A DNA stretch of 64,000 nt from Clostridiales bacterium. GTDB lineage: Bacteria; Bacillota; Clostridia; Christensenellales; JAISNN01. Made by a program: the position numbers and the translations under genes. This document shows positions 2,790 to 60,381 of the stretch, piece by piece (positions within the stretch are counted from its first letter, which is position 1; each line of letters starts with the position of its first letter). The DNA lies in NCBI GenBank assembly GCA_031276195.1, contig JAISNN010000077.1:5165-69164 (forward strand), written 5' to 3'. The notes below the pieces were generated by a model. It saw only the letters and a program-made list of their open reading frames with translations, was not told where the DNA came from and ran no database searches.

Positions 2790-3235
2790 GAGTTTTTATA
2801 GAATACTCCGATTTTGTTTTTTAGAATGCTTCGGATTTTGCGTGATTTCCCGTCTTTTGGAACGCTTTTAATACCGCTTTCATATTTTTTAGAATACTTC
2901 GCGTTTTATAAAATAGTCCGACTTTGTTTTTTAGAATACTTCGGATTTTGTGTGATTTCCCGTCTTTTGGAACGATTTTAATACCGCTTTCATATTTTTT
3001 AGAATACTTCGCGTTTTATAAAATAGTCCGACTTTGTTTTATAGAATACTTCGGATTTTGCGTGATTTCCCGTCTTTTGGAACGATTTTAATGCCGATTT
3101 CATATTTTTTAGAATACTTAGAGTTTTTATAAAATACTCCGACTTTGTTTTATAGAATACTTCGGATTTTGTGTGATTCCCCGTCTTTTGGAACGCTTTT
3201 AACCCCGGATTTATATTTTTCGGAATATTTCTAAC
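2790..3235. repeat. about 117-bp tandem repeat, about 3.7 copies, upstream of galE
   Basis: unit TAGAATACTTCGCGTTTTATAAAATAGTCCGACTTTGTTTT...TTTGGAACGATTTTAATACCGCTTTCATATTTTT recurs at about 2889, 3001, 3113. Confidence 0.8.
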
Positions 3236-4552: not shown

Positions 4553-4589
4553 CCCTCCGTGGGAGGGGATCTAAGGGGTGGGGCGACCG
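4553..4589. repeat. short palindromic interspersed element (CCCCTCCGTGGGAGGGG-N6-GGGGTGGGGCGA)
   Basis: 7-bp stem / 3-nt loop GC hairpin followed by GGGGTGGGGCGACCGATT; same element at 37834, 41496 (inverted), 53388, 53489, 53609, 61994 and within the long forms at 61529 and 63426. Confidence 0.85.
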
Positions 4590-19175: not shown

Positions 19176-19618
19176 CTAACAATGCCAAACGCATCTCGCC
19201 GGGTTCGGCTCGTTTTCCACCGCGACCGCCCGTAACGCTGCGGTATAGTCCGCGCAAACCTCCTCGGCAATTCTATCATACTCCGCTTCGTCCGCGCCGA
19301 ATCCCAATTTAAATACTTACGCGCCTAACAATGCCAAACACATCTCGCCGGGTTCGGCTCGTTTTCCGCCGCGACCGCCCGCAACGCGGCGGTATAGTCC
19401 GCGCAAACTTCCTCGGCGATTTTATCATACTCCGCTTCGTCCGCGCCGAATTCCAATTTAAATACTTACGCGCCTAACAATGCCAAACACATCTCGCCGG
19501 GTTCGGCTCGTTTTCCGCCGCAACCGCCCGCAACGCGGCGGTATAGTCCGCGCAAACCTCCTCGGCAATTCTATCATACTCCGCTTCGTCCGCGCCGAAT
19601 CCCAAGCGGTCATAAGCG
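19176..19618. repeat. three tandem copies (about 149 bp) of the 3'-terminal coding segment plus stop of the 19474..20004 gene
   Basis: copies at 19176-19324, 19325-19473 and 19474-19618 (the last is the real gene end); each begins CTAACAATGCCAAAC (stop codon on minus strand). Confidence 0.85.
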
Positions 19619-37833: not shown

Positions 37834-37870
37834 CCCCTCCGTGGGAGGGGATCAAAGGGGTGGGGCGACC
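37834..37870. repeat. short palindromic interspersed element
   Basis: ATTCCCCTCCGTGGGAGGGGATCAAAGGGGTGGGGCGACCGATT. Confidence 0.85.
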
Positions 37871-49106: not shown

Positions 49107-49134
49107 AAAAAACGCGGTTGGTTTGCCGCGGAAA

Positions 49135-49430
49135 TACTTGCGGAATAATACGCTAAAAACACGGCTCTATACCGCGGAATTACGCGCAGAATAATATACT
49201 AAAAAACGCGGCTCTATACCGCGGAATGACGAACGGAATAATATACTAAAAACGCGGCTCTATACCGCGGAAATACTTGCGGAATAATATACTAAAAAAC
49301 GCGGCTCTATACCGCGGAATTGCGAACGGAATAATATACTAAAAAACGCGGCTCTATACCGCTGAATTACGCGCAGAATAATATACTAAAAAACGCGGCT
49401 CTATACCGCGGAATTACGCGCAAAAAACAC
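49135..49430. repeat. about 58-bp tandem repeat x5 between potA and potB
   Basis: unit ACGCGGCTCTATACCGCGGAATTACGCGCAGAATAATATACTAAAAA. Confidence 0.85.
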
Positions 49431-51440: not shown

Positions 51441-53045
51441 ATGAAAAAAACAAAGTTCATCGTTCTGCTTTTGGTTTTGGCGATCTGCCTGCCCGTCTTG
51501 GCGGCTTGCAACACCGCCACACCCGACGACGTCCTCTACGTCTACAACTGGGAGGACTATATCAGCGAGGATCTGATCAAAGCCTTTGAAGAAAAATATA
51601 GCGTTACCGTCGAAGTTCCGACCTTCGACACAAACGAAACTATGATCACAAACCTTGTCGACGGAAAACAGTCCTACGACATAATCTGCCCGTCCGACTA
51701 CGCCATTCAGCAACTCATAAAACGCAAACTCTTGGAACCGCTTGACAAGGACAAATTGCCCGTATATTTTGAAAACGTTTCGTACGGCGTCCACGACAAA
51801 TTCGAGGGCATCATAACGGACGACGCGGACAATCTTTACGCGATCGGCTATATGTGGGGCATTATGGGCATCCTGTATAACGTCGAAAAACTTGAAGAAA
51901 AAGGCTTTTCAGTCGAAAACGACAATATCGACACATGGGGCTTGCTGTTTGAGGAGGAGTTTAAAGGGCAGGTCTATATGAAAGACAGCATAAGGGACAC
52001 TTTCGCCGCGCTCTCGCTTTGGGCATACAGAGAAGAATTGGCAAGCGGCGAATTAAAACCTCAGGACGTTTTGTCGAACGATAAAGACGGCTTGATCGAC
52101 CGCGTAAAAGCGGTGTTTAAAGAACAAAAAAGCAAGGTTTCTCCCCTTTTCGAGGTCGACGAGGCGAAAAACAGTTTGGCGGAGGGGCAGTACGCTATGG
52201 CTCTTATGTGGAGCGGCGACGCTTATGAATCCATCTTGAACGCCGCCGAAAAAGGCATAGAACTCGGTTTTGCATATCCTACGGAGGGCAATAACATATT
52301 CTTTGACGGGCTGGCGATTCCGAAAAACGATAAGCGCACGGATGCCAAACGCGACCTTATATATAAGTTTTTGAATTTCATATCCGAACCCGAAAACGCC
52401 GCCGTCAATATGGAAGCGACGGGCTACACGAGCGTTATCGCGGGAACGGGTACGACGGTCGACGACAATCCTATTTTGAAATACGCGCATGTTTCGGAGG
52501 AAGAGGGCGGCGAAGTAAACAACTTCTTTTTTCCCGAAGGCGTGGACGTTCCCGTCGACACTCTTTTGTATCCATCGCCCGAATATTTGGCTGAAAAATG
52601 CGCGATAATGTACGACTACGGCGACAGAACGGAAGCCTTTAACGACGCGTGGGTCGAACTTATGGGCAACGTCGGCGGCGATGACGAAGGACTGCCGGGC
52701 TGGGCGGTCGCATTGATCGTCATAGGATCGATATTGGTCGTTTTGGGCGTCTTGGGCTTTGTATTCAGAGCGAAAGTCGCGGACTTTATCGGCAAAAAAT
52801 TCCCAAACCTCTTAAAGAAAAATACGGCTGATTCCGCGGCAAGCGGCGCGGCAAACGCGCCGAAACCTTCTTCCGCAAGCGGCGCGGAAACGGAAAAATC
52901 GCCCGGAAACGCAACGACGAAAGCCGAAAAACCCTCCCCCGCTCCGTCCGAAACGGAAAGCGGCAAGACCGCCGAACAACACGCGGACAAAAAACCGCCC
53001 GCATTCGACGATGACGACGACGAATTTATTCCTCCCGTCAAATAA
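51441..53045 (+). CDS. potD: spermidine/putrescine-binding lipoprotein with C-terminal TM helix and low-complexity acidic tail
   Basis: lipobox LAAC; PotD/PotF SBP fold over about 400 aa; then GWAVALIVIGSILVVLGVLGFVF TM and an Ala/Ser/Pro/Lys-rich tail ending DDDDDEFIPPVK. Confidence 0.8.
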   Translation: MKKTKFIVLLLVLAICLPVLAACNTATPDDVLYVYNWEDYISEDLIKAFEEKYSVTVEVPTFDTNETMITNLVDGKQSYDIICPSDYAIQQLIKRKLLEPLDKDKLPVYFENVSYGVHDKFEGIITDDADNLYAIGYMWGIMGILYNVEKLEEKGFSVENDNIDTWGLLFEEEFKGQVYMKDSIRDTFAALSLWAYREELASGELKPQDVLSNDKDGLIDRVKAVFKEQKSKVSPLFEVDEAKNSLAEGQYAMALMWSGDAYESILNAAEKGIELGFAYPTEGNNIFFDGLAIPKNDKRTDAKRDLIYKFLNFISEPENAAVNMEATGYTSVIAGTGTTVDDNPILKYAHVSEEEGGEVNNFFFPEGVDVPVDTLLYPSPEYLAEKCAIMYDYGDRTEAFNDAWVELMGNVGGDDEGLPGWAVALIVIGSILVVLGVLGFVFRAKVADFIGKKFPNLLKKNTADSAASGAANAPKPSSASGAETEKSPGNATTKAEKPSPAPSETESGKTAEQHADKKPPAFDDDDDEFIPPVK

Positions 53046-53183
53046 AAAGCGGACAAAAAACCGCCCGCGTTCGATGATGACAACGACGATGAATTTATTC
53101 CTCCCGTCAAATAAAAAGCGGACAAAAAACCGCCCGCATTCGACGATGACGACGACGATGAATTTATTCCTCCCGTCAAATAA
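52978..53183. repeat. 69-bp tandem repeat x3 (potD tail codons + stop)
   Basis: AAAAGCGGACAAAAAACCGCCCGCRTTCGAYGATGAC(GAC/AAC)GACGA(T)GAATTTATTCCTCCCGTCAAATAA three times; only copy 1 is inside the ORF. Confidence 0.85.
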
Positions 53184-53220
53184 AAAACGTATAGTTTAAA
53201 AAAATAAAAAATAAAAACAG

Positions 53221-53255: not shown

Positions 53256-53380
53256 AAAGCGAGAATACATCCCGATTTAAAAATATAACAAATAAAGCGA
53301 ATTCCTTGATTTACAATCTTTCGATCTTGTTTGTTTTATACCGAAAAAAAACACGCCAACGTAAAAAAATTAATATCCTT

Positions 53381-53690
53381 GTAAATTCCCCTCCGCGGGA
53401 GGGGCAAGGGGTGGGGCGAACTTTCCTTACTATCCTCAATTCCCCTCTTAAAGCGCATCTTTCCGCATTTCTCTAATTTTCCGCTATTCCCCTCCGCGGG
53501 AGGGATCAAAGGGGTGGGGCGAAACGTTCGCTTGATATTTTACCGTTTACGTCAATGACAACGGGGCTTACAAAGCGATGCATTTTCCCCCGTTCTCTCA
53601 TTATCCTCAATTCCCCTCCGCGGGAGGGATCAAAGGGGTAGGGCGGCATTATGAAATTATTATATTCCTCAATTCCCCTCCGTATAGAAA
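53381..53690. repeat. cluster of 3 complete + 2 truncated short palindromic elements
   Basis: complete copies at 53388-53420, 53489-53522, 53609-53640; truncated AATTCCCCTC at about 53440 and 53674; irregular spacing (20-85 bp). Confidence 0.8.
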
Positions 53691-53726: not shown

Positions 53727-53755
53727 TTGACATATCGCAATCTATATGATAATAT
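53727..53755 (+). promoter_or_regulatory. sigma70-type promoter TTGACA-17-TAATAT
   Basis: TTGACA 53727-53732; -10 TAATAT 53750-53755 preceded by TG-containing TATATGA. Confidence 0.5.
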
Positions 53756-53799
53756 ATTTAAAATCGGTTTTTCGCGTAATTAAACGCGTAAAATCCGAC

Positions 53800-54000
53800 G
53801 TCATAGAGGCGCGGAATATCAATAGTAACTTTTTTTTAAGAGGGCTTCGCGGCTTTCGCATATTCTTTCCCGTCCGCTTTACGGGAAGTTATGACCGTTA
53901 AGAAAAGTGAAAGGGATTTTCCGCCGAAACAAAACGGAATTTTATCGCGGTTTTCCGTTTTGTTGGCCGCGCGGGGCTAATACCTCTCCGGCTGTCGCTT
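53800..54000 (+). promoter_or_regulatory. candidate lysine riboswitch (L-box)
   Basis: ordered conserved L-box blocks: AGAGGCGC (53808), AGTAAC (about 53826), GAAAGGG (53893), CCGAAAC (53907), TGGCCG (53957), GCTGTCGC (53990) over about 190 nt, followed by a U-rich stretch; downstream neighbourhood includes asd-dapA-dapB. Confidence 0.5.
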
Positions 54001-54249
54001 TTGTTTTGTATTTTGTTTTTCGGTCGTTTCGGCAAATACGGCGGTTAAAAGTTCCGCGTTGACCGATTAAAAACTTTGCGGTTAAAGTTTTCGGCGCGGG
54101 TTGCAAAAATACAAAAAAAATAAAGCGGAGCGCTATGTTACTTCTAAAATTACGGGGTTTAAATAAGCGGCAGTTTTTTTAAACCGTTGTTTTGGGGCGG
54201 CATTAGCGGAATGCCGTCTTTATTTATACCTCGAAAAAAAATAAAAATT

Positions 54250-54600
54250 TACTTTCGGCATAACAAAAACGAAATAAAAAACGCGTTATCTTTCCACTTT
54301 CGGCATAACAAAAAACGAAATAAAAAACGCGTTGTCTTTCCCCGTTCGGCATAACAAAAACGAAATAAAAAACGCGTTATCTTTTCCCCGTTCGGCATAA
54401 CAAAAAACGAAACAAAAAACGCGTTATCTTTTCCCCGTTCGGCATAACAAAAACGAAATAAAAACGCGTTATCTTTCCCCGTTCGGCATAACAAAAAACG
54501 CGTTGTCTTTCCGCTTTCGGCATAACAAAAAACGAAATAAAAAACGCGTTATCTTTTCCCCGTTCGGCATAACAAAAACGAAACAAAAAAACGCGTTTTT
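54250..54600. repeat. 46-bp tandem repeat x about 7 (unit GTTCGGCATAACAAAAACGAAATAAAAAACGCGTTATCTTTTCCCC)
   Basis: near-identical units with no unique spacers; each contains the AACGCGTT palindrome; one unit internally deleted (54481-54515). Confidence 0.85.
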
Positions 54601-54666
54601 TTATAACGGAAAGAATAAAAAACTATATTTCCGTCATCCCCCAAAAAATCGGGAGGTAAAACAAAA

Positions 54667-55752
54667 TTGAGCGAAGAAAATAACGCTTTCAACGGCGAAT
54701 CAAACCCCGCCGTTTCATACGGTTGTTCCTCTTGCGGCGGCGCGCTCGAATACTCGCCCGAAAAGGGCGCGCTTTGCTGTCCGTACTGCGGAAATACGGA
54801 GGAAGTCGCGCGCGGCGAGTCCGCGGAACGCGATTTTTTGTCGCACGCCTCCTCTTCCGAGGGCTGGGCGGAAGAAGCGTTCGCCTATTCCTGCCCGAAC
54901 TGCGGAAGCGCGCAAGTCATCGAAAAAGACGACTTGACGCACGTATGCCCTTTTTGCGGCACGCAAGCCGTCCTGAACAGCGGCGTTTTGACGGGTATCA
55001 AACCCGACAGCCTGATCCCCTTTTCTCTGCCGCGGACAAAGGCGGAGGAGGCTTTTAAGGCGTGGACAAAGAGCCGTTTTTTCCTGCCGAACGCCCTAAA
55101 AAAACGGGCGGACGCCGATAAATATCACGGCGTGTTTATGCCCGTCTGGACGTTCGACGACAAAACCTTTTCCGATTATGAAGGGCTGCTCGGAAAACAC
55201 TACACCGTTACGGTCGGAAGCGGCAAAAACCGCCGCACCGAAGTACGCACGAGATATTTCAGCATTAAAGGTTCCGTTTCGGAATTTTTCGATGACGTTT
55301 GCATAAACGCCAGCGACAAAATCGAAAAAAAACATCTGAATAAAATTATGCCCTACGACACCAACAACGGCGTAAAATACGACAAAAAGTTTTTGGCGGG
55401 TTTTTCGGCGATACGGTATAACAAGGACATAAAAACCGCGTGGGCGGAGGCGAAAGACAATATCGCGGGGCGGCTCCGCGCGCTCATTTTGTCAAAATAT
55501 AACTATGACGTCGTGTCGCGCCTCAATATCCAAACGCGGCACACGAACATCACCTTTAAATATATACTGCTCCCCGTTTGGGTCTCGAATTTCAAATATA
55601 ATTCTAAAATATACAATTTTTTTATAAACGGAATAAGCGGAAAAGTTTCGGGAAAACGCCCGTACTCCGCGCCGAAAATTCTCGCCGCGATCGGAGGGGG
55701 ACTCGCCGCCGCGGGGCTGCTGTTTTTTCTCATTTCAAAACTTGCGGGGTAA
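54667..55752 (+). CDS. hypothetical zinc-ribbon protein with C-terminal TM anchor
   Basis: 361 aa; three CxxC..CPxCG pairs at the N-terminus (CSSCGG..CCPYCG; CPNCGS..CPFCG); C-terminal hydrophobic helix; TTG start with GGGAGG RBS. Confidence 0.5.
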   Translation: MSEENNAFNGESNPAVSYGCSSCGGALEYSPEKGALCCPYCGNTEEVARGESAERDFLSHASSSEGWAEEAFAYSCPNCGSAQVIEKDDLTHVCPFCGTQAVLNSGVLTGIKPDSLIPFSLPRTKAEEAFKAWTKSRFFLPNALKKRADADKYHGVFMPVWTFDDKTFSDYEGLLGKHYTVTVGSGKNRRTEVRTRYFSIKGSVSEFFDDVCINASDKIEKKHLNKIMPYDTNNGVKYDKKFLAGFSAIRYNKDIKTAWAEAKDNIAGRLRALILSKYNYDVVSRLNIQTRHTNITFKYILLPVWVSNFKYNSKIYNFFINGISGKVSGKRPYSAPKILAAIGGGLAAAGLLFFLISKLAG

Positions 55753-55789
55753 TGAAAGCGCGAACTTAGCGGAAATACTATACAGAGTC

Positions 55790-56000
55790 CAAACAACGGC
55801 ATACCGTACAAAATCTAAATAATGCAATACTCTAATAACGCGGCATACCGTGCAAAACCTAAACAATGCAATACTCTAATAACGCGGCATACCGTGCAAA
55901 ACCTAAACAATGCAATACTCTAATAACGCGGCATACCGTACAAAACCTAAATAATGCAATACTCTAATAACGCGGCATACTATGCAAAATCTAAATAATG
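55790..56000. repeat. about 57-bp tandem repeat x about 4 upstream of asd
   Basis: unit CTAAACAATGCAATACTCTAATAACGCGGCATACCGTGCAAAAC. Confidence 0.8.
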
Positions 56001-56130
56001 TAATATTCTAAAATACAGAATACTCCGCAAAACCGGTTAAATACCGCCGCTAACCGCCGCAAATGTAAAATCCCTTTCAATCACATCATAATATATAATA
56101 CACAATATATATCAAGGAGAAACAACGTCA

Positions 56131-57129
56131 ATGAAAAAGTACAATATCGCGGTCGTCGGCGCGACCGGTATGGTCGGAAATAAATTTTTGCAGGTTTTGT
56201 CCGAAAAAAATCTGCCCGTCGAAAACTACTATCTCTACGCCTCCGCGAAAAGCGCGGGCAAGGTCATAAATTTTATGGGCAAGGATCTCACCGTCCTCGA
56301 ACTCACGCGCGAAAATATCACGGGGAAAAATATCGATATCGCCCTCTTTTCGGCGGGCGCGTCGGTCAGCCGCGAGTTTGCGCCGGTGTTCGCGGAGGCG
56401 GGCGCGGTCGTGATCGACAACAGCAGTTGTTTTAGAATGGACAAGGACGTGCCGCTCGTCGTTCCGGAAGTCAACCCCGAAGACGTCTTTTGGAACAAGG
56501 GCGTCATCGCGAACCCGAATTGCTCGACGATTCAAGCCGTCGTCGCCTTGAAACCCCTGCACGACAAATACAAAATCAAAAGGATCGTCTATTCGACCTA
56601 TCAATCCGTGTCGGGCGCGGGAATGGGCGGTTATAACGACCTTATCGAGGGCGCGAAAGGCAATCCCCCGAAGAAATTTCCCTACCCTATTTTCAACAAT
56701 TTAATTCCTCAAATCGACGTCTTTTTGGAGGACGGGTACACGAAAGAGGAGGTCAAAATGATCAACGAAACGCGCAAAATCCTGCACGACGACGGTCTGA
56801 AAATCACGGCTACGACGGTCAGAGTTCCCGTAACGTACGGACACAGCGAATCTATAAACGTCGAGTTTTTTGAACCCTGTACGCTCGGCGGGATCAAGGA
56901 CGCGCTCAAAAATCAAGAGGGAATCGTTTTGTACGACGACATAAAAAACGGCGTATATCCGATGCCGTGCGTCTGCGAGGACAAAGACGAGGTTTTCGTG
57001 GGCAGAATCAGATTGGACGAGAGCGTCGAAAGCGGTTGTAATATATTCGTCGTCGCCGACAATATCCGAAAAGGCGCGGCGACAAACGCCGTCCAAATCG
57101 CCGAATATATCATCAAAAACGAAAAATAA
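56131..57129 (+). CDS. asd: aspartate-semialdehyde dehydrogenase
   Basis: 332 aa; VGATGMVG N-terminus, NPNCSTI active-site Cys, SGAG motif. Confidence 0.92.
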   Translation: MKKYNIAVVGATGMVGNKFLQVLSEKNLPVENYYLYASAKSAGKVINFMGKDLTVLELTRENITGKNIDIALFSAGASVSREFAPVFAEAGAVVIDNSSCFRMDKDVPLVVPEVNPEDVFWNKGVIANPNCSTIQAVVALKPLHDKYKIKRIVYSTYQSVSGAGMGGYNDLIEGAKGNPPKKFPYPIFNNLIPQIDVFLEDGYTKEEVKMINETRKILHDDGLKITATTVRVPVTYGHSESINVEFFEPCTLGGIKDALKNQEGIVLYDDIKNGVYPMPCVCEDKDEVFVGRIRLDESVESGCNIFVVADNIRKGAATNAVQIAEYIIKNEK

Positions 57130-57467
57130 TTATATAATATACGTTATATAAAACGGACGTAAAAACAAAAACGGTTATATGATATATATTATATAAATCA
57201 AACGCTTGAAAACCGGATAATATATAATATACGTTATATAAATCAAGCGTGAAAACCGAATAATATATACAATGTAAGTTACGTAAATACGCCGTGAAAA
57301 AACATAAAGAATTATATAATGTAAGTTATACCATTCCAAAACGAAAAACGGATAATATATAATACAAATTATATAAGCGCGGAAAAATAGAAAGAATTAT
57401 ATGATATATATTATATAAAAATTATATAAAAAAATAACGCGTATTAAAAAAACGGGAAGTGATTTTT

Positions 57468-58370
57468 ATGACAGACGCTATATTTAAAGGCTGCGGAACG
57501 GCTCTCATCACGCCCTTCACGGAGGGCGGCGGCGCGGTGGATTTTTCCGCGCTGGAACGTCTTATCGAGTTTCAGATTTCAAACGGGATAGATTCTCTCG
57601 TCGCGCTTGGCACGACGGGCGAAGCGATGACCCTCACCCCCTCCGAAAAAGAGGAGGTCATAAGGTTCGCGGTTTCAAAGATCAACCGCCGCGTTCCCGT
57701 CATAGTGGGAACGGGTTCAAATTCGACGGCTTGCGCGGTCGAAAATTCGCGCGCCGCCGAAAAACTCGGCGCGGACGGGATTCTCCTCGTTACCCCGTAC
57801 TACAATAAATGCACTCAAAACGGACTTATCGCCCATTTCGGCGCGGTTGCGGACGCGGTGGGGCTGCCCGTCGTCGCCTACAACGTCCCGGGACGCACGG
57901 GCGTGAACATTCTCCCCGCGACGTTTGCGAAAATGTGCGAACACAAAAACGTTTCCGCGATAAAGGAAGCGAGCGGCGACATCTCCCAAATTTCCGAAAC
58001 CGCCCGCCTGACGCGCGGCAAAGCGCACATATATTGCGGCGACGACGGGATAATTCTGCCCGTGATTAGCGTCGGGGGGATAGGCGTGATCAGCGTCGCG
58101 GCGAATATCGCGCCCAAATATTTTTCGGAATTGACCGCCGCCGCCCTGAGCGGACAAAAAAAAGCGGTCGAAATGCAACTCAACGCTTTACCCCTCATAA
58201 AGGCTCTTTTTTCCGAAGTCAATCCCATTCCCGTCAAGGCGGCGGCGGAACTGCTCGGGCTGTCCGGCGGCGCGGTCAGACTTCCCCTCACCCGGATCGA
58301 GGACGGCAATCTTTTGAATCTCAAAAAAGTTACGGACGAATTTTTTAAAGCGCAAGAAAATTTTTTTTAA
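57468..58370 (+). CDS. dapA: 4-hydroxy-tetrahydrodipicolinate synthase
   Basis: GTTGE motif (LGTTGEAMTLT), YNVPGRTG, Schiff-base K region; start set to ATG 57468 (MTDAIFKG). Confidence 0.9.
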   Translation: MTDAIFKGCGTALITPFTEGGGAVDFSALERLIEFQISNGIDSLVALGTTGEAMTLTPSEKEEVIRFAVSKINRRVPVIVGTGSNSTACAVENSRAAEKLGADGILLVTPYYNKCTQNGLIAHFGAVADAVGLPVVAYNVPGRTGVNILPATFAKMCEHKNVSAIKEASGDISQISETARLTRGKAHIYCGDDGIILPVISVGGIGVISVAANIAPKYFSELTAAALSGQKKAVEMQLNALPLIKALFSEVNPIPVKAAAELLGLSGGAVRLPLTRIEDGNLLNLKKVTDEFFKAQENFF

Positions 58371-58394: not shown

Positions 58395-58660
58395 TATAAA
58401 TCCGCATTCTAAATTGTAGAAAAACGGATAAAATTTTCGCATTCGATATTAAAAAAGCATAAAAAAACGATTGTATTATTTTGTATTTCAATACTAAAAA
58501 AGTATAAATAACGATTGAAAACATTGTATATCCGTTATTAAAAAACATAAAAAAACGATTGAAAACATTATATATCCGCCGTTAAAAAAGCATAAAAAAC
58601 GATTGTATTATTTTGTCTTTCAATATTAAAAAGCATAAATAACGATTGAGTTAAAAAAAA
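58395..58660. repeat. about 60-bp tandem repeat x4 between dapA and dapB
   Basis: unit GTTAAAAAAGCATAAAAAACGATTGTATTATTTTGTATTTCAATACTAAAAA / variant ..GATTGAAAACATTGTATATCCG. Confidence 0.75.
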
Positions 58661-58667
58661 GGAAAAT

Positions 58668-59867
58668 ATGATTAAGGTTTTGATTTTCGGAATCAGCGGA
58701 AAAATGGGGCATATGATATACTCTCAACTCCAAAACCACGAAAGGTTAAAGGCGGTCGCGGGGATTGACAAATACGCCGTCAAGATAGATTTCGACGTCC
58801 CCGTCTTTCCCGACGTCAAGGACTGCGCGGTCGTACCCGACGTGATAATCGACTTTTCGCGCCCCGACTCGCTCCAAGACATCCTTGCCTACGCCGTCCC
58901 GAACAATATTCCCGTCGTCCTCGCCACGACGGGCTATTCCGCCGAACAACTCGACAAAATTTCGCGCGCCTCAAAAGACGTTCCGATTTTTATGACGAGC
59001 AATATGTCTCTCGGCATAAATCTTTTGATCTCCCTCGCCAAACAAGCGGCCGGCTTTTTGGGCGGCGGTTTCGACGTCGAGATCGTCGAGCAGCACCACA
59101 ACCAAAAGGCGGACTCCCCCAGCGGCACCGCGCTTTCGATCGCGCGCGCCGTCAACGAAATTTTTTCGGAGGACAAGGAATTCGTCTACGGCAGATGCGG
59201 AAATTCATCCAAACGCCGCCCCTCCGAAATAGGGATTCACGCCGTGCGCGGCGGGACGATCGTCGGCAAACACGACGTGATGTTTATCGGCACGGACGAA
59301 GTCATAACTCTCACCCACGAGGCGCAGAGCAGGCGCGTTTTCGCGGCGGGAGCGATCCGCGCCGCCGAATATATCGTCGGGAAAAAACCGAAAATCTACG
59401 GTATGAACAACCTCTTAGGGCCGGACTATTCCGTAACGGGCGTCCGCGTCGAAAACGATATCACGGTGTTCAATATCGCGAATACCGATATCGCGGAATA
59501 CATAAAAATGTTCGACGCGTTCGCAAAGGAAAATATCAATATCGATATGATAAGTCAGGTCTATAACGCGGGCGGTTCGGTCGCTATAAGTTTCACCGTA
59601 AAGGATAAAAAATCCGAAAAATCCAAAACCGTTCTGGAAAATCAAAAAATTAAGTTCTCCGCCGTCAACGGTACCGCCAAAATCACCTGCGAAGGCGCGG
59701 GTATGGAATACCAAAGCGGCGTGTTTAAAGATATCGTCAATATCCTGCGCGGAGTCGGCGCGAAAATCTATCTCGTAACCACAAGCGAAACCAAAATCTC
59801 TTGCTGCGTCGACTCCCCCTCCGCGAAAGAAGCCGAAAAACTAATCGCAGATTACTATATTAAATAA
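58668..59867 (+). CDS. dapB: 4-hydroxy-tetrahydrodipicolinate reductase fused to C-terminal tandem ACT-like regulatory domains
   Basis: residues 1-265 = DapB (GxxGxMG N-terminus, E.HH..K.D.PSGTA catalytic motif); residues about 270-399 resemble aspartokinase-type ACT domains (ISFTV, KISCCV patterns). Confidence 0.8.
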   Translation: MIKVLIFGISGKMGHMIYSQLQNHERLKAVAGIDKYAVKIDFDVPVFPDVKDCAVVPDVIIDFSRPDSLQDILAYAVPNNIPVVLATTGYSAEQLDKISRASKDVPIFMTSNMSLGINLLISLAKQAAGFLGGGFDVEIVEQHHNQKADSPSGTALSIARAVNEIFSEDKEFVYGRCGNSSKRRPSEIGIHAVRGGTIVGKHDVMFIGTDEVITLTHEAQSRRVFAAGAIRAAEYIVGKKPKIYGMNNLLGPDYSVTGVRVENDITVFNIANTDIAEYIKMFDAFAKENINIDMISQVYNAGGSVAISFTVKDKKSEKSKTVLENQKIKFSAVNGTAKITCEGAGMEYQSGVFKDIVNILRGVGAKIYLVTTSETKISCCVDSPSAKEAEKLIADYYIK

Positions 59868-60163
59868 CGGAAAATTCATTTTACGCGCGGGAAAACTTTT
59901 CTAAAACTTTTAGTAAATTTAAAACACGGTTTTACGTTATAAAACTTTCACTATTAAAAAAACTTCTCTCTTAAAAAACAAGAGAGAAGTTTTTTAAAAA
60001 GGAATTTTATTTATATTTTTTCGTCTTTTCTTTTAAGTAAAACCGCTAAAATCTTAATTGAAATCTCCGGAATTCCCGGCCGAAATTGTGAAAATCTTAA
60101 CAAACTTTATTTTTTGCGGTTATTTACTTGCCATATTTTTATAATTGGCTTATAATATATAGC

Positions 60164-60193
60164 AGTTGAACTTTTAAATCAAACATATGTTTG
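60164..60193. promoter_or_regulatory. 26-bp perfect palindrome TTTAAATCAAACATATGTTTGATTTAAA (operator-like) upstream of serC
   Basis: perfect dyad; a near-identical dyad (TTTTAAATCAAACGTACTTTTGATTTAAAAG) occurs at 6082-6112, there embedded in a larger GAGCGGTT...AACCGCT inverted repeat. Confidence 0.5.
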
Positions 60194-60381
60194 ATTTAAA
60201 ACCGCTCTATAAGAGCGGCGGCGAAATGCAAGCATTTTGCCGGATTTACCGCTATGACGGCATTAAACGGGCGGATTTCCGCCCTCCGCCGCCTTTATAC
60301 GACGGCGGATTTTAATCCGTACACTGAATAAAACAGACTATAATATAACCTATAATAACAAAAAGGGAGTTCGATAAAAAA

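Follow-up and report, generated by a model that had tools for sequence, protein, structure and literature searches.

In a 64-kb stretch of DNA from a Clostridiales bacterium (the window, to which all positions refer unless a locus is named), the candidate L-box at 53802-54137, judged by its sequence, truly belongs to the lysine riboswitch family and is unusually large through peripheral expansion. We consider it likely, with a probability of roughly 0.7, that this element works as a lysine-OFF transcriptional attenuator and gates one ~6.2-kb transcript comprising a ydjG-like gene, asd, dapA and dapB, the last fused to ACT domains. An earlier note on the same DNA had described a 46-bp array, an ORF for a Zn-ribbon protein and asd-dapA-dapB downstream on the same strand, all of which are in the sequence; asd, dapA and dapB lie on the strand of the L-box and behind the ydjG-like first cistron.

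Features of the leader:
53727-53755, + strand: sigma-70-type promoter TTGACA-17-TAATAT with a TG extended -10 (10/12 consensus matches)
53802-54137, + strand: complete lysine riboswitch aptamer, 336 nt (RF00168 match, orthologue 3' motif, MFE fold, RNAalifold)
53811-53924, + strand: P2/P2a/P2b arm, in which a 58-nt branched distal part replaces ~13 model positions
53928-53964, + strand: P3 hairpin, a 12-bp perfect stem (100% complementary inverted repeat) with GCGG in the loop and compensatory GC/AU changes
53965-53992, + strand: P4 hairpin with the conserved CUAAUAC loop (cmscan, MFE, RNAalifold)
53994-54129, + strand: P5, extended into a long irregular hairpin by a ~115-128-nt insertion (MFE, inverted repeat, orthologue comparison)
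54131-54142, + strand: predicted antiterminator 5' half, overlapping the P1 3' strand and pairing with 54196-54208
54196-54228, + strand: predicted intrinsic terminator, hairpin GGCGGCAUU-AGCGG-AAUGCCGUC (54196-54218), then UUUAUUUAUA
54254-54597, + strand: tandem array, 46 bp x 7.8 copies (344 nt), in the 5' UTR between terminator and ribosome-binding site
54651-54656, + strand: ribosome-binding site GGGAGG, 10 nt 5' of a TTG start codon (direct reading)

Identity and true extent of the aptamer

The match to RF00168 (Lysine) at 53796-54008 on the + strand reached 62.8 bits in Rfam cmscan against a gathering score of 30 (E=4.8e-14), and a scan of the whole 64-kb window returned no second Rfam match. 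This Infernal result, together with the five-helix fold found by the folding checks, bears out the L-box call of the earlier note. The same note had placed the conserved blocks AGAGGCGC, AGUA, GAAAGGG, CCGAAAC, UGGCC and CUGUC in a segment of ~190 nt; they do occur in that order, within 53805-53995, and this part of the description stands, whereas its coordinates are partial, the aptamer really spanning 53802-54137.

In the cmscan alignment, the 23 model positions of P5 are aligned to nothing and P1 is poor, with non-canonical pairs, and we therefore suspected that the 3' part had been mis-assigned. The aptamers of two orthologous leaders, L003 and L007, end CUGUCGCCG...CGGCGGAGCGCUAUG, and it is because of this end motif that we place the 3' end of the window aptamer at 54137. 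Its true 3' end is thus GCGGAGCGCUAUG at 54125-54137, and the orthologues have the identical 3' motif GGAGCGCUAUG. Between CUGUCGC at ~53990 and this end, 128 nt separate the conserved blocks. The RF00168 core blocks (AGAGG.GC, AGUA, GAAAGG, GCCGAA, UGG, the AAUA loop, CUGUC and GGAG.GCUA) are then complete and ordered, the final one, GGAG.GCUA, lying at 54128-54135, and the 5' strand of P1, CAUAG (53802-53806), pairs with its 3' strand, CUAUG (54133-54137). P1 has just 5 bp, after which comes a U-U mismatch. At 336 nt against the 182 positions of the RF00168 model, the window aptamer is about twice as long, owing to the P5 insertion and the branched P2.

Fold, covariation and the P5 extension

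The unconstrained minimum free energy (MFE) structure of 53796-54146 is the five-helix L-box fold P1-P5, at -107.3 kcal/mol; with the L-box helices enforced the value is -104.9 kcal/mol. MAFFT misaligned the leaders 3' of CUGUCGC owing to the P5 insert, and RNAalifold was instead given four leaders (window, L086, L007 and L003) that had been anchored on the motifs and whose P5 inserts had been cut back to their ends. The resulting consensus contains P1-P5, with 52 pairs of which 10 show compensatory changes; P3, for instance, has G-C in the window where the other three orthologues have A-U. The loop of the distal P2 hairpin reads CCGCUUU and is complementary to GCGG of the P3 loop, and this L2-L3 match, which is a complementarity read directly from the letters, takes the form CCGC/GCGG in the window and YCGC with GCGG in L007, L086 and L003 as well.

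In the MFE structure the base of P5, CGCUUU/AAAGCG, runs on into a long irregular hairpin, and the P5 extension contains an inverted repeat at 54000-54014 and 54106-54120 (15 nt, 93% complementary). The gap from GGCUGUCGC to GGAGCGCUAUG measures 128 nt in the window and 100 nt in L086, 17 nt in L003 and 13 nt in L007, and the insertions of the window and L086 have the core CGGTCGTT(T)CGGC in common. Since the fold of the P5 insert has a z-score of only -1.7 relative to shuffled sequences, the case for a P5 helix rests on the terminal inverted repeat and not on overall stability. The U-rich run at ~53998-54020, which the earlier note had seen as the end of the element and as a point of premature termination near 54000, was rejected as a terminator: it is the 5' strand of the P5 extension and pairs with 54106-54120, and the predicted terminator lies further on, at 54196-54228.

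Promoter, expression platform and predicted switch

The promoter reported before, TTGACA-17-TAATAT, is present at 53727-53755, and the orthologous leaders have identical hexamers and spacing (L007:593-621 and L086:175-203). Relative to L007, the window has a 25-nt insertion between promoter and P1 (53765-53795), with a small CGCGT/ACGCG hairpin inside, and L086 has an insertion of ~115 nt at the equivalent site. Directly upstream of the riboswitch promoter there are three to four copies of a dispersed REP-like element, ATTCCCCTCCGCGGGAGGGATCAAAGGGGTRGGGCG, with a CCCTCC-GCG-GGAGGG hairpin (53380-53690), which recurs at 4562-4579 and 37844-37861. A tRNA gene is found just 5' of the L-box at L003:5543-5614 and L007:397-468 (- strand), the strands differing; the window has none there.

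A consensus scan called a terminator-like hairpin at 54194-54220, and the predicted terminator of the window is homologous to those of L086 (695-729) and L007 (896-925). The L007 terminator is canonical, GGCGGCAUAG-UUU-CUAUGCCGCC-GUUUUUUG, and in the window and L007 alike the terminator begins 58 nt past P1; the U-tract is interrupted in the window (UUUAUUUAU) and in L086. When the nascent transcript was folded minus the 3' arm of the terminator, the MFE structure predicted an antiterminator pairing 54131-54142 with 54196-54208. The same thermodynamic prediction gives an equivalent 11-bp antiterminator in L007 (832-843 with 896-906) that likewise overlaps P1, and a less clear pairing in L003.

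A terminator opposed by a competing antiterminator, with lysine stabilising P1 and so stopping transcription, is the classical logic in Firmicutes, and the B. subtilis lysC leader and the Thermotoga maritima aptamer are known examples of RF00168. The window element resembles lysine riboswitches in its core blocks, five-helix junction, L2-L3 complementarity and, by prediction, a downstream terminator with a competing antiterminator, and we infer that it binds lysine and switches in the same way. Transcription would start from the promoter (53727-53755). Once lysine is bound, the aptamer with its five helices (53802-54137) would lock P1, leaving 54196-54218 free to form the terminator, and RNA polymerase would stop at ~54219-54228. 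When lysine is absent, 54131-54142, that is, the 3' strand of P1 and the next bases, would pair with the 5' arm of the terminator at 54196-54208, and this antiterminator would permit read-through of the 46-bp array into a ~6.2-kb unit, which would comprise the ydjG-like gene, asd, dapA and dapB(+ACT) and end at a terminator at 59961-60000.

The setting differs from that of known L-boxes in the ~530 nt that lie between P1 and the start codon, the 344-nt tandem array included. From the terminator to the start codon the window has 448 nt of untranslated sequence, the same stretch in L003 and L007 being only 40-100 nt. How far away the start codon lies is of no consequence in itself to a transcriptional attenuator.

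The transcription unit and a possible internal promoter

Features of the operon:
54667-55752, + strand: YdjG/SamG-family gene, 361 aa, first cistron, with two Zn ribbons, a central beta-rich domain and a C-terminal transmembrane helix
55797-56011, + strand: tandem array, 44 bp x 4.9 copies, in the ydjG-like/asd spacer
56000-56024, + strand: palindrome AATATTCT-7-AGAATACT in the ydjG-like/asd spacer, conserved in L003, L005 and L007
56131-57129, + strand: asd, aspartate-semialdehyde dehydrogenase (ORF and protein analysis)
57176-57300, + strand: tandem array, period ~43-45, 2-2.8 copies, in the asd/dapA spacer
57459-58370, + strand: dapA, 4-hydroxy-tetrahydrodipicolinate synthase (ORF and protein analysis)
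58441-58649, + strand: tandem array, 44 bp x 4.8 copies, in the dapA/dapB spacer
58668-59867, + strand: dapB fused to two aspartokinase-type ACT domains (ORF and protein analysis)
59961-60000, + strand: terminator hairpin AACTTCTCTCTT-AAAAAAC-AAGAGAGAAGTT, then TTTT (direct reading)

Among the readings offered in the earlier note, read-through control of the whole block has turned out to be the best supported, the gene order being conserved and compact in relatives and dapB being followed by a terminator. Consensus scans of the three operon spacers gave no + strand terminator-like site, and what they gave as + strand promoter-like sites, at 54600 and 58582, is weak (9/12). The hairpin at 59961-60000 was not listed by the consensus scan; it is likely the end of the transcription unit, and 3' of it, ahead of serC, stands an 11/12 promoter. 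The outcome of the spacer scans and the hairpin 3' of dapB thus support a unit running from 53727 to ~60000 and, with it, the co-transcription of the four genes. This reading as one unit carries the caveat that the AT-rich arrays, with their many TATAAT-like strings, could hide promoters that a consensus scan misses.

Two further observations concern the end of this region. DapB with two ACT domains is a ~400-aa architecture shared by almost every one of the best 120 homologue clusters, which are mostly from Clostridia or Christensenellaceae MAGs and are annotated plainly as dapB; the ACT domains may give DapB allosteric feedback. Beyond the operon, 60128-60380 contains a strong promoter, TTGCCA-17-TATAAT, followed by a ~220-nt GC-rich leader with several inverted repeats before serC, and this leader has no Rfam match.

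Does the L-box then reach as far as asd-dapA-dapB? It is conceivable, if unlikely in our estimation, that it gates the ydjG-like gene only, or little more, and that an internal promoter in the ydjG-like/asd spacer, which the palindrome may control, also drives asd-dapA-dapB or is the main source of their expression. This 378-nt spacer is AT-rich and full of TATAAT-like strings, its palindrome AGAATACT/AGTATTCT is kept in the window, L003, L005 and L007 (L003:7090-7120, L005:7085-7120 and L007:2122-2175), and two relatives, L001 and L005, retain the operon without an L-box. However, the scans gave neither a + strand promoter-like site of at least 9/12 nor a terminator within 55753-56131, the palindrome was not found in the ydjG-like/asd spacer of L086, and the arrangement that appears ancestral has the L-box directly controlling asd-dapA-dapB. 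The palindrome itself could be an operator, a promoter element, or an RNA or processing hairpin. The 44-bp array unit upstream of it contains a half-site-like GCAATACTCTAA.

The first cistron belongs to the YdjG/SamG family

The ‘Zn-ribbon membrane protein’ encoded ahead of asd is no stray gene product: from its amino acid sequence, it is a homologue of YdjG/SamG. BLASTP aligned it with YDJG_BACSU over its full length (residues 16-361, E=2e-45, 26% identity), the reference being confirmed by exact look-up as ‘PspA localization factor YdjG’. Like B. subtilis YdjG, to which it shows homology throughout, it has two N-terminal CxxC...CxxC ribbons and a C-terminal transmembrane helix. The Zn-ribbon cysteines (20, 23, 38, 41, 76, 79, 94 and 97) are invariant or nearly so among homologues, and the AF2 model (mean pLDDT 89) places the helix at 335-360. 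In B. subtilis, the membrane protein YdjG/SamG acts together with YdjH to recruit PspA and the SPFH protein YdjI (PMC8581546; bioRxiv 10.64898/2026.02.06.704340), and ydjG mutants mislocalise cell-wall synthesis under stress (PMC8581546).

Non-redundant loci bearing homologues, most of them from a scan of GTDB species-representative genomes, provide the wider context: a YdjI-like gene, encoding an SPFH Band_7_1 protein with Zn ribbons at its C terminus, lies directly upstream on the same strand in 65 of the 77 other loci. It is this neighbour, and not the dap genes, that usually accompanies the family, and this context lends no support to the novel lysine-related function that the earlier note had contemplated for the Zn-ribbon protein. 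The two-gene module of SPFH and YdjG-family genes (L010-L085, e.g. L010:4931-7086) has a gene order unlike that of B. subtilis pspA-ydjGHI. Unlike that operon, too, the window has no pspA, ydjH or SPFH gene, and its ydjG-like gene stands under an L-box together with dap genes; no SPFH (YdjI-like) homologue was found in the window or beside the ydjG-like genes of its clade, and one may be located elsewhere in the genome. One could imagine that the YdjG-family protein is kept under lysine control as a link between envelope or peptidoglycan assembly and the supply of meso-diaminopimelate and lysine, and that the large P5 extension, found in two lineages, is a functional add-on and not neutral growth, but we regard this as quite improbable.

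History of the operon

How might a ydjG-like gene have come to head an operon of this kind? A YdjG homologue followed 3' by asd-dapA-dapB was found only in a small clade of Clostridiales MAGs (window, L086, L001, L007, L003 and L005), within which the YdjG-like proteins are 78-55% identical, the closest relative found being L086 at 78%. The four-gene block is syntenic in every clade locus long enough, the flanking genes vary, and in four of the six loci (window, L086, L007 and L003) an L-box stands directly before the ydjG-like gene, so that the order is L-box, ydjG-like, asd, dapA, dapB. These L-boxes score 98.5 bits in L003, 90.2 in L007 and 70.5 in L086; in L001 and L005, Rfam searches at E<=10 gave none upstream of the ydjG-like gene. 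Two more distant Clostridia, L087 and L088, carry the same DapB-ACT fusion at 49% identity and have an L-box (82.1 and 79.9 bits) directly before asd-dapA-dapB(ACT), with no ydjG-like gene. A metagenome scan with CATAGAGGCGCGGRAWA yielded 120 stretches, none with a matching 3' motif or a ydjG-like gene, and added no relatives.

Operons with asd-dapA-dapB under lysine riboswitches, including some with unrelated inserted genes, are documented, for example asd-dapA-dapB-dapD in Staphylococcus pseudintermedius and lysA-asd-dapA-dapB in C. difficile (PMC5584792). The window agrees with these Firmicutes operons in having an L-box ahead of asd-dapA-dapB and an unrelated gene inserted, and differs in that this gene is the first cistron and of the YdjG/SamG family, that dapB carries ACT domains, and that every spacer holds a tandem array. 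Given the more distant Clostridia in which the L-box directly precedes asd-dapA-dapB, the ydjG-family gene probably entered an ancestral L-box-asd-dapA-dapB operon as its first cistron in this small clade; the insertion of the gene, one of the possibilities raised in the earlier note, is thus supported by the synteny. The lineage of the window would afterwards have expanded its non-coding DNA, through the P2 and P5 insertions, the 25-nt insert before P1 and the arrays in the leader and in all spacers.

The insertion of the array, suggested in the same note, is supported by its being missing from the orthologous leaders: the 46-bp leader array is not present in L003 or L007. L086 has ~180 nt from terminator to start; three degenerate CGGCATA motifs in this stretch are similar to the window repeat unit and are possibly a proto-array. 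Operon spacers are short in L003, L005 and L211, those of L211, whose DapB-ACT is 85% identical, measuring 94 and 77 nt. TRF listed 31 tandem arrays in the window, 6,658 bp or 10.4% of its length, with one in each operon spacer and one in the leader; relatives carry 1, 1 and 0 per 13 kb. The scarcity of arrays in relatives, the short spacers of L211 and the motifs of L086 argue that leader sequence was amplified into the 46-bp array recently and specifically in this lineage, an event of a kind that is not peculiar to this locus.

Array periods across the window range from 14 to 149 bp, and many arrays lie between ORFs (e.g. 224-773, 2794-3231, 19176-19605, 49107-49421 and 52983-53186). Through most of the first half, their units read T-rich on the + strand, and from ~49 kb, where the called genes are on the + strand, they read A-rich; unit orientation may follow the gene strand. 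CGGCATAMC was considered as a regulatory motif and rejected, its enrichment arising only from its position inside two arrays.

That the L-box is a decaying relic, inactivated by the P2 and P5 insertions, the leader array and the weakened U-tract and heading for loss as in L001 and L005, is least probable of all: the window has the lowest Rfam score of the six L-boxes scored (62.8 against 70.5-98.5 bits), two relatives have lost theirs, P1 is short and the U-tract interrupted, but every conserved core block is intact, compensatory changes in P3 and P2 of the window preserve pairing, the inserts are located in peripheral loops, where they close into helices, L086 and L007 share the promoter, the terminator and the spacing, and cmscan, by skipping P5 and misplacing P1, accounts for the lower score. 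The likeness to L086, the compensatory pairs and the kept loop complementarity likewise argue against a relic.

Significance

The apparent orphan riboswitch is hereby explained. The two L-boxes with P5 inserts, those of the window and L086, score lowest of the six, and the case illustrates how a real aptamer can be cut short by a covariance model when it carries a large peripheral insertion, which is useful to bear in mind when annotating MAGs. It also puts on record that a YdjG/SamG-family gene stands under predicted lysine-riboswitch control, with a 344-nt tandem array in its leader that apparently must be transcribed between the switch and the gene. The known mechanism of the L-box is unchanged by these results: what this clade presents would be a switch of the ordinary type in an unusual setting.
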